Below, piece after piece: positions 39,898 through 40,899 of a stretch of 64,000 nucleotides of DNA. The position numbers were made by a program, and so were the translations under genes. This DNA comes from a virus. Lineage: Duplodnaviria > Heunggongvirae > Uroviricota > Caudoviricetes. The notes beneath the pieces were generated by a model. That model was not told the origin of the DNA, did not search any database, and worked only from the letters and a program-made list of their open reading frames with translations. The DNA is taken from the IMG/VR virus record IMGVR_UViG_2721755728_000011. One strand, written 5' to 3'. How positions within the stretch are numbered: the stretch's first letter is position 1; every line of letters starts with the position of its first letter.

Positions 39898-40008
39898 TTA
39901 TTCATTCTGTTCTTTCATCATCGGCCACAGCAATACCACAATGCCGCAGACCAGAGCGCCATCAGTCAGTACCAACATTATCCTGCTGGTGAAATCCATC
40001 ATCACCAT
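39898..40008 (-). CDS. Possible small hydrophobic peptide (36 aa)
   Basis: ATG-initiated ORF MVMMDFTSRIMLVLTDGALVCGIVVLLWPMMKEQNE upstream of holin; coding status unverified. Confidence 0.25.
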   Translation of the reverse strand: MVMMDFTSRIMLVLTDGALVCGIVVLLWPMMKEQNE

Positions 40009-40141
40009 CACTAAAAGCAGGATCACAACAGCAAGCAGACACAGTTTATAAAACAATGTTCAGAAAACGCATTCAGCATGCCTAAGGTTCTATTCCTACG
40101 AATAGCCAACTTGCAACTTAAAATATTATTTATGCAGCCAA

Positions 40142-40384
40142 TTAAATTCTGGTCCTTACAATATCAACCTGAAGATTCTTATCTTGTGCTGATTGATAAA
40201 TGACAAACCTTTTACTACCTGCATTGAAAGAAGTAGACAAAACCAGACAATTATCATAACGAGCAAGAACATAATACCAACCATCATTATAATTAATCAT
40301 TTCATATTCTTTCTTAAACTGTGGTTTGTAATATCCTGTCAGAAATGAAAAAAGCCAAAAATATGCCACAAAAGCAATCATCAC
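40142..40384 (-). CDS. Hypothetical protein with N-terminal TM helix (80 aa), AT-rich
   Basis: Overlaps upstream ORF by 4 nt (operon-like); AT-rich composition. Confidence 0.45.
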   Translation of the reverse strand: MMIAFVAYFWLFSFLTGYYKPQFKKEYEMINYNDGWYYVLARYDNCLVLSTSFNAGSKRFVIYQSAQDKNLQVDIVRTRI

Positions 40385-40899
40385 AATCTCAAAAAAATGT
40401 TTTTTATAAATGGCTTATCATAGAAGCATGATACCGATAAAAATCGCCCATAAGATCTTATCGAAATTGTAACCGCCAGCGCAATCGCTGCTGACAGTAG
40501 CAAAAGAGGTACCTGAATCTTCTGTCTCAATATAGAAAACTCAATAATTGCCGGCACAAACAATAATTCCACAGCAAAATAAAGGCGAAATACATTTAGC
40601 TCTTGCATAGAATGTTTTCTTTTCACTGCGAAAAAGAATACAACACCAATACCCCAACCGATAAGAAATATAGCAATGACGATAACTGCAAAAAATAAAC
40701 TTCTGGCAACATCATCAACACCTGCACCTACAATCCACCATGGGAAGCCGTAGTAAAAAGAAGTACCCCATCCATAGAAATAAGCACTCCCCCATCCAAG
40801 GCATCCCATGTAGGCAATAAAAAGTGAAGAACTCCTGAGCAGCGCACCATCCTTCATAACCACCCCAATACAAGATGATAACATTGGCTTACAACTCAT
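40381..40899 (-). CDS. Hypothetical polytopic membrane protein (up to 172 aa; start uncertain), AT-rich
   Basis: Several hydrophobic segments; sits between Q and holin. Confidence 0.45.
   Translation of the reverse strand: MSCKPMLSSCIGVVMKDGALLRSSSLFIAYMGCLGWGSAYFYGWGTSFYYGFPWWIVGAGVDDVARSLFFAVIVIAIFLIGWGIGVVFFFAVKRKHSMQELNVFRLYFAVELLFVPAIIEFSILRQKIQVPLLLLSAAIALAVTISIRSYGRFLSVSCFYDKPFIKNIFLRL

Follow-up and report, generated by a model that had tools for sequence, protein, structure and literature searches.

We analyzed the AT-rich cassette that lies between the antiterminator gene Q and the holin gene of a lambdoid prophage on a 64,000-nucleotide (nt) stretch of viral DNA (IMG/VR record IMGVR_UViG_2721755728_000011), referred to here as the window. 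Very probably, the cassette is a known piece of lambdoid cargo (a "moron") in the slot between pR'/Q and the lysis genes, which would serve the lysogen and is composed of a TfpB/STM1630-family gene, a DUF3927 gene and a PasD/STnc100-type RNA, with the large gene inactivated in this copy. The original prediction had already recognized AT-rich cargo in the lambdoid Q-to-holin slot, and our analysis supports this view. It had further described two overlapping genes for a membrane protein and a small partner. The two open reading frames (ORFs) are indeed found at the place described, at 40381-40899 (minus strand, 172 amino acids (aa)) and 40142-40384 (minus strand, 80 aa) with a 4-nt overlap, and they do encode hydrophobic helices. 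Judged from the sequence, however, they are the halves of a single gene that has lost its function through the deletion of 1 nt from an A7 run. The main value of the analysis lies in this correction: the supposed module of a membrane protein and its small partner is a frameshift artefact of one catalogued gene. Both protein families are already in Pfam, the RNA class has been described, and the cassette is annotated in phages 434 and 2B8. New here are the corrected two-gene reading, a confident predicted fold without structural relatives, and the recurrence of the family beside virulence cargo.

The split TfpB/STM1630-family gene

When the window is aligned to phage 434 and E. coli 22-245, one A is missing from an A7 run of the window and no other indel is present. 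The coding strand around the remaining A6 run reads ...TTTATAAAAAAC... in the window. Restoring the missing A gives a single 238-aa ORF starting at M15 of the 172-aa ORF, and the repaired protein is the phage 434 protein except for the repair itself; its matches carry PF27470 with E-values down to 1e-158. Likewise, the profile of PHROG 1521 (222 positions) runs across the break, with positions 1-140 on residues 31-170 of the first ORF (ORF1) and positions 143-222 on residues 1-80 of the second (ORF2). DNA that is 100% identical in E. coli C3 is annotated in RefSeq by the Prokaryotic Genome Annotation Pipeline (PGAP) as "hypothetical protein, frameshifted", and the intact allele is named "STM1630 family protein" by RefSeq. 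All 26 diverse homologues that were aligned are uninterrupted ORFs, nearly all of 236-238 aa. The window copy has ORFs of 158/172 aa and 79/80 aa instead of the one uninterrupted ORF of about 236-261 aa that defines a full-length member, and the N-terminal motif AY..GWxSAYxYGWG..YYGxPWW..ARSL and the C-terminal motif YY(V/I)L...(L/I)IL are both kept across its two fragments. The transmembrane helix that had been assigned to the N terminus of a separate 80-aa protein is helix 5 of the full protein. M15 (40857), rather than 40899, is likely the start of the large gene; PGAP uses it at another locus (L002), and a Shine-Dalgarno-like motif, GGGGTGG, can be read just upstream. When the ORFs and the intact protein were scanned locally with Pfam and NCBIfam models, the large gene had no match, because the PF27470 model is newer than the Pfam copy scanned. 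We infer that the window gene is a pseudogene, which would yield at most a truncated fragment of 158 aa and perhaps a C-terminal fragment of 79 aa. Since the large gene is broken in the window, its role, whatever that is, has probably been lost here.

It is improbable, in our view, that the split is tolerated or even used, whether by -1 slippage, by A7/A6 on/off switching or by co-assembly of the 79-aa and 158-aa pieces. The deletion creates A_AAA_AAC, which fits the X_XXY_YYZ pattern in frame and from which a -1 slip would restore the downstream frame, but no stimulatory structure follows this heptamer (-7.9 kcal/mol and z = -0.15 for the 70 nt downstream). Moreover, other family members conserve neither the Lys-Lys codons nor the A7 run. 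Homopolymer runs lie at positions that differ from one homologue to another, as expected of plain mutational hotspots in AT-rich genes with many Phe and Lys codons. The break falls in a positively charged, predicted cytoplasmic loop between helices 4 and 5, outside the helices, so that the fragments might assemble; the stop of ORF1 overlaps the GTG and ATG starts of ORF2 (GTGATG); and each half has its own separate PHROG. The exact 79-aa product is found on 411 contigs, compared with 918 for the intact 238-aa product, and A6 alleles occur in several mosaic backgrounds. Nevertheless, the majority allele is the in-frame A7, with A6 in just 15-18 of about 681 complete genomes, and efficient phase variation would call for a run longer than A7. 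Apart from the window copy, truncated TfpB-family forms are frequent in the databases; besides the 79-aa C-terminal fragment, many forms of 94-199 aa are found in Avibacterium. The AT-rich, homopolymer-rich genes of the family seem to be disrupted often.

That the frameshift is an error of sequencing or assembly at a homopolymer, with an intact gene in the real organism, we regard as quite unlikely. The indel does sit in a homopolymer, and the closely related assembly of E. coli C3 (NZ_CP010119), in which positions 4583149-4622370 match window positions 24762-64000 with 99.918% identity over 39.2 kb and the prophage adjoins torS, contains several further prophage genes annotated as frameshifted (gam, P, a tail gene and an IS3 transposase). 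However, the extra bases of the C3 gam and P genes are absent from the window, and A6 is common to both. The exact 60-mer with A6 occurs in 15 complete E. coli genomes, which come from different laboratories and from cow, swine, monkey, fish, cat and human, so that at least 15 complete genomes carry the same allele; six of them were compared, and these differ in their Q (two types) and in the gene downstream (three kinds). In addition, 17 public contigs, older draft genomes included, encode exactly the truncated product of 158 aa. Because A6 is shared without the gam and P frameshifts of C3, and because of the 15 complete genomes, their mosaic backgrounds and the 17 contigs, we conclude from these comparisons that A6 is a genuine allele. 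Among 5426 complete genomes, the gene segment is present in about 681, and the A6 carriers account for about 2-3% of those; the tally of 15-18 carriers given above is the usable one, as the 94-mer identity bands merge single-nucleotide polymorphisms (SNPs) and indels. The cassette has 2 variable sites in about 1050 nt, and a single spread of A6 by recombination is indistinguishable from its repeated origin by internal SNPs.

The cassette in phages 434 and 2B8, its RNA elements and its possible expression

Two annotated phages contain the cassette in nearly the same form. Genes gp68-gp69-gp70 of phage 434 (OL657226) are 98-98.5% identical at the DNA level to window positions 39574-41001, and gp58-gp59 of phage 2B8 (NC_049952) match with the same 98-98.5% identity, reaching position 41136. 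Both phages have the same order as the window, namely the membrane protein, the DUF3927 protein ("TciB") and an RNA element with a terminator. Unlike in the window, the large gene is intact (A7) in both, and a sialate-esterase (nanS-p-like) gene separates their cassette from the holin. Phage 434 also has a Q82-type Q and a terminator upstream of the cassette, whereas the window has a lambda-type Q and neither this terminator nor the esterase. The cassette is widespread, with an identity of 98-100% across these two phages and hundreds of E. coli prophages. In 585 E. coli genomes, the match extends over 80% or more of the 1.8-kb slot, and hundreds of RefSeq genomes annotate the cassette, including O157, O26, O103 and O111 strains. 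Phage 434 was isolated in the 1950s.

Classical morons and toxin cargo of the Q-S slot (stx and nanS-p, with bor and lom located elsewhere) consist of an AT-rich insert with a terminator downstream in the late operon, and the window cassette shares this layout. Its G+C content is 0.36 compared with 0.51 for the flanks, and a terminator lies downstream at 39693-39711. Sliding windows over the slot gave values of 0.32-0.39, and the values of 0.362 for the large gene and 0.51 for Q and the lysis genes confirm the AT-richness noted originally. Unlike the classical morons, the cassette contains no toxin or known fitness function.

The second gene of the cassette encodes a 52-aa mini-protein, for which hydrophobicity indicates two helices. 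It matches PF13064 with 53 bits over residues 7-50 (cut-off, 25 bits) and PHROG 1470 with an E-value of 2.5e-17, and the exact protein is found on 995 public contigs. A possible 36-aa hydrophobic peptide had been predicted at this place; its hydrophobic coding is real, and it corresponds to residues 17-52 of the DUF3927 protein rather than to a separate peptide. In a tblastn search of the 21 loci that contain a family gene (L001-L021), DUF3927 was found only in three near-identical cassettes and was absent from the other 18 (L004-L021), some of which are contigs that stop just past the family gene. The large gene is a stand-alone unit as far as these loci indicate, because the pairing with DUF3927 is seen just in one near-identical cassette. 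Hence neither the 80-aa ORF, which is the frameshifted C terminus, nor DUF3927 is the small partner that had been proposed. A tblastn search of phages with DUF3927 returned six phage records only, and phage P1 is not among them. TciB of P1 shares PF13064 and PHROG 1470 with the 52-aa ORF, and this link is remote since P1 gave no tblastn match. The wording of the P1 tciABC label (phage-related ter genes) stems from the similarity of TciA to TerB. The name TciB, which would suggest resistance to tellurite or colicin or an inhibition of cell division, is not functional evidence, because the label derives from that similarity. The P1 tciB gene is non-essential in a CRISPR interference (CRISPRi) essentiality map. 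We found no experiment on TciB in the literature, where both "TciB" and "TfpB" are shared with unrelated acronyms.

The STnc100-like element that follows DUF3927 is very probably a gene for PasD, a small RNA (sRNA) that binds Hfq. The assignment is based on its position, with the PF03589 Q upstream and the esterase or holin next, together with the terminator and the STnc100-like fold. The Rfam alignment covers the full-length model with 37.5 bits (E = 4e-6), under the gathering score of 47. PasD1 and PasD2 of enteropathogenic E. coli (EPEC) are Hfq-binding sRNAs described as structural homologues of STnc100 (Zhu, Shabalina and Storz, bioRxiv 10.64898/2026.05.13.724894). The same study lists the PF03589 Q among the conserved neighbours of PasD, reports that Esr41 is often nearby, and places pasD of phage 2B8 directly upstream of the esterase gene (bioRxiv 10.64898/2026.05.13.724894). 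Window positions 39599-39896 are the exact counterpart of the interval between TciB and the esterase in 2B8. The window element has the same position as PasD1, PasD2 and STnc100, a terminal hairpin with a U-run, and an Esr41-like neighbour. Its score below the Rfam threshold is in line with the reported resemblance of PasD to STnc100, which is one of structure and not of BLAST-level sequence. PasD was detected by northern blot in EPEC without prophage induction (PMC8550237). The STnc100-like RNA could be an sRNA derived from the 3' end of the cargo transcript. The Esr41-like element was aligned over its full length with 32 bits (E = 1e-3; gathering score, 102) and has a larger loop. A 132-aa ORF in RefSeq (WP_033816266.1; 39419-39817, plus strand) and "gp70" of phage 434 overlap the RNA elements and terminators and are probably not genes.

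At the junction between pR' and the cargo (40985-41062, minus strand), no terminator is predicted (z = 0.0), in contrast to the Q82-type counterpart in phage 434 (z = -3.5). Because no terminator separates pR' from the cassette in the lambda-Q-type junction, transcripts from pR' may run through the TfpB-family gene and DUF3927 and would stop about 1.35 kb downstream, at the PasD terminator. This would give expression of the cargo in the lysogen, with Q-modified polymerase reading onward into the lysis genes. The breakpoint of homology between the window and phage 434 lies within the junction terminator of 434 (2470-2515 of the 434 locus). Identical cargo may therefore be active in the lysogen of one phage yet depend on Q in another. 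A promoter-like site, TTGTTA-18-TATCAT with a TG (extended -10), is also found at 40904-40875.

The TfpB family and its possible roles

The family to which the large gene belongs is small. All homologues have PF27470 "TfpB" as their precomputed Pfam domain, and a HMMER profile search of 1.84 billion representatives gave 71 clusters at 50% identity. Its members, all named hypothetical, are found in Enterobacterales, Pasteurellaceae, Neisseria and Moraxella, and the family is restricted to animal-associated Proteobacteria. The members from Moraxella bovis and Moraxella lacunata, whose tfpB gave the family its name, are of the same length class as the window protein and share its N-terminal aromatic/glycine motif and C-terminal beta domain. 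Distant members are only about 20-30% identical; unlike the frameshifted copy of the window, the Moraxella tfpB lies outside a prophage, flanked in the invertible pilin region by pilin genes of opposite orientation, and was recovered by the family profile. We know of no function established for it in the Moraxella papers of the 1990s. TfpB of Acinetobacter is an unrelated ATPase and not a member of this family.

We modeled the intact protein with AlphaFold2, including distant homologues in the alignment, and obtained a predicted local distance difference test score (pLDDT) of 83.5 and a predicted template modeling score (pTM) of 0.77. The distant homologues were needed, as the model from 37 close homologues alone was unusable (pLDDT of 58). 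The predicted structure has five long helices (residues 10-36, 47-79, 84-111, 116-137 and 155-181) and a C-terminal beta domain of about 55 residues with five strands (184-235). Because the loop charges fit an N-in/C-out topology, the beta domain is presumably periplasmic. A comparison of the predicted model detected no structural relatives among viral or solved structures. MCR-1, which appeared with an E-value of only 2.2 in a profile search of PDB sequences, was rejected as a relative.

The genomic contexts of the family are diverse. In Yersinia, the family gene comes after a Q gene; in Klebsiella, a two-partner secretion pair and an STb-like gene are found nearby; and on plasmids of enterotoxigenic E. 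coli (ETEC), it is located beside eltAB and estB. In Salmonella, the family gene STM1630 adjoins sseJ, and in Citrobacter rodentium it is located at the syntenic chromosomal site, beside a split lpxR. Mannheimia and Neisseria have it among housekeeping genes. At one further E. coli locus (L018), it is next to iroBC, and a tRNA, a genuine STnc100 (125.9 bits), STnc490 and bor come after it; this order resembles a remnant of a prophage Q-S region, and the LT/STb neighbourhood may share that origin. STM1630 of Salmonella Typhimurium is 46% identical to the cassette protein and, like it, is a stand-alone, AT-rich gene for 238 aa, although it is part of a chromosomal islet rather than a prophage. 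STM1630 is listed among the genes co-regulated with Salmonella pathogenicity island 2 (SPI-2) (PMC2639726), and two strains have been compared for its expression while infecting macrophages (bioRxiv 10.1101/689075, 10.1101/450098). The family offers a modest lead in that it is very small, recurs beside virulence cargo and has a confident predicted fold without relatives. For its study, the intact alleles of 434, O157 and O26 should be used rather than the window copy.

Most likely, by analogy with these contexts, an intact TfpB-family protein would serve the lysogen as an envelope or host-association factor rather than the phage in lysis or defence; this role is the weakest step of our argument. 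Several observations weigh against the reading of the cassette as lysogen-serving cargo. A function has been established for no TfpB-family member. Deletion of STM1630 gave no phenotype in intramacrophage replication (bioRxiv 10.1101/689075, 10.1101/450098), and the hypermotility phenotype of STM1630 comes from one screen, for which a follow-up study warns that some phenotypes may be indirect. The read-through from pR' is deduced solely from the absent predicted terminator, and a dedicated promoter is unproven, as the region contains 5 promoter-like hexamers compared with 6.1 expected from shuffles. The identification of PasD comes from its position and a sub-threshold STnc100 score, not from an alignment to a PasD sequence. 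Finally, A6 may be a homopolymer error common to related assemblies.

The idea that the membrane proteins constitute a prophage-expressed module for superinfection exclusion or abortive infection, as had been proposed originally, finds no support in our results, and we give it little credence. Membrane proteins in a prophage cargo slot would suit such a module, many exclusion proteins being small inner-membrane proteins, and neither protein has an assigned function. P1 tciB even bears an inherited label that mentions phage-related ter genes. However, a PADLOC search at E-values up to 1 returned 0 families for both ORFs, the intact protein, the Moraxella TfpB, STM1630 and DUF3927, so that neither protein nor its distant family members are matched, and the predicted structure shows no similarity to viral proteins. 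What had been taken for a pair is a single gene, beside which DUF3927 is not conserved. The family is moreover fixed at non-phage sites, such as that of the SPI-2-co-regulated STM1630, and the large gene is disrupted both in the window and in further lysogens. The chromosomal and plasmid contexts outside phages argue against an obligate two-gene module as well as against a role in lysis.

As to the role of the intact protein for the lysogen, a bolder version to which we attach only slight probability is that the TfpB family is an unrecognized class of envelope factors travelling with toxin and virulence cargo. Its members might act in the release of toxins or vesicles, in envelope remodeling or in blocking a route of entry at the surface or the inner membrane, and slippage could switch them, with A6 as the "off" state.

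A lysis-timing accessory (antiholin-like or holin-modulating) that is transcribed with the lysis genes, which the original prediction had also considered, is highly unlikely: the cassette does lie immediately upstream of the pinholin and endolysin genes on the same strand and late transcript, and DUF3927 has two transmembrane helices, as class II holins do, but the family is located mostly away from lysis cassettes (Salmonella, ETEC plasmids, Klebsiella, Mannheimia, Neisseria and Moraxella), the cassette is separated from the holin by two terminator-like hairpins, to which phage 434 adds an esterase gene of 1.85 kb, no cassette protein matches a holin family in Pfam or PHROG, and P1 tciB is non-essential in the CRISPRi map.

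The late region and the rest of the window

ORF and profile annotation of the window indicates that the late region of the lambdoid prophage is on the minus strand (Table 1). The cassette had been placed between a lambda-type Q and the holin, and profile matches bear out both boundaries. The first 84 nt past Q are 90-92% identical to annotated promoter and lambda Qut site stretches of HK97, HK022 and mEp phages. A tRNA scan of the slot found none.

Table 1. Features of the Q-to-holin slot and its surroundings, in transcription order of the late region; positions are those of the window
Feature	Position	Strand	Basis or remark
NinI-like phosphatase	41757-42422	-	Precedes Q in transcription order
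Lambda-type antiterminator Q, 207 aa	41137-41760	-	PF03589 (E = 4e-58), PHROG 127; RefSeq "antitermination protein"; upstream slot boundary
Slot under study	39322-41136	-	Q end to lysis genes
pR'-like late promoter and lambda-like qut site, TTGACT-17-GAAACT	41050-41133	-	Similarity to annotated phage sites
Frameshifted TfpB/STM1630-family (PF27470) inner-membrane protein gene	40142-40857	-	172-aa ORF (from M15) and 80-aa ORF
Frameshift site, coding-strand A6 vs intact A7	40400-40405	T6 on + strand	After about residue 150 of 238
DUF3927 ("TciB-like") 52-aa two-helix membrane mini-protein, TTG start	39898-40056	-	PF13064, PHROG 1470
STnc100-like structured RNA (very probably pasD)	39682-39887	-	Rfam RF02076; starts 10 nt past the DUF3927 stop
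Strong intrinsic terminator of the STnc100-like RNA	39693-39711	-	-17 kcal/mol, z = -3.1
Esr41-like element with its own terminator	39416-39505	+	Rfam RF02676; runs antisense to the late operon, a short way upstream of the holin
Second terminator-like hairpin, just upstream of the holin start	39314-39342	-	-16.2 kcal/mol, z = -2.75
S21-type class II (pin)holin	39061-39276	-	PF04971, RefSeq; downstream slot boundary
Signal-anchor-release (SAR) endolysin	38564-39061	-	PF00959, RefSeq; after the holin
Rz	38130-38579	-	PF03245, RefSeq; after the SAR endolysin

Elsewhere in the window, an orphan ORF of 590 aa is located at 44132-45904 (plus strand), antisense to the phage genes, within an AT-rich portion of the nin region (G+C content, 0.31-0.37). 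It has no Pfam or PADLOC match and is annotated as hypothetical in RefSeq. Prophage defence cargo often sits in positions like this one. The nin region is interrupted by two copies of an IS3-family element (about 46895-48205 and about 49129-50439), and NinB is split; one IS3 copy differs by a 19-nt indel between the window and the C3 prophage. Further holin/endolysin-like stretches (2561-3345 and 9673-10457) and a diverged copy of the tail genes (21216-24374) point to additional prophage material in the window.

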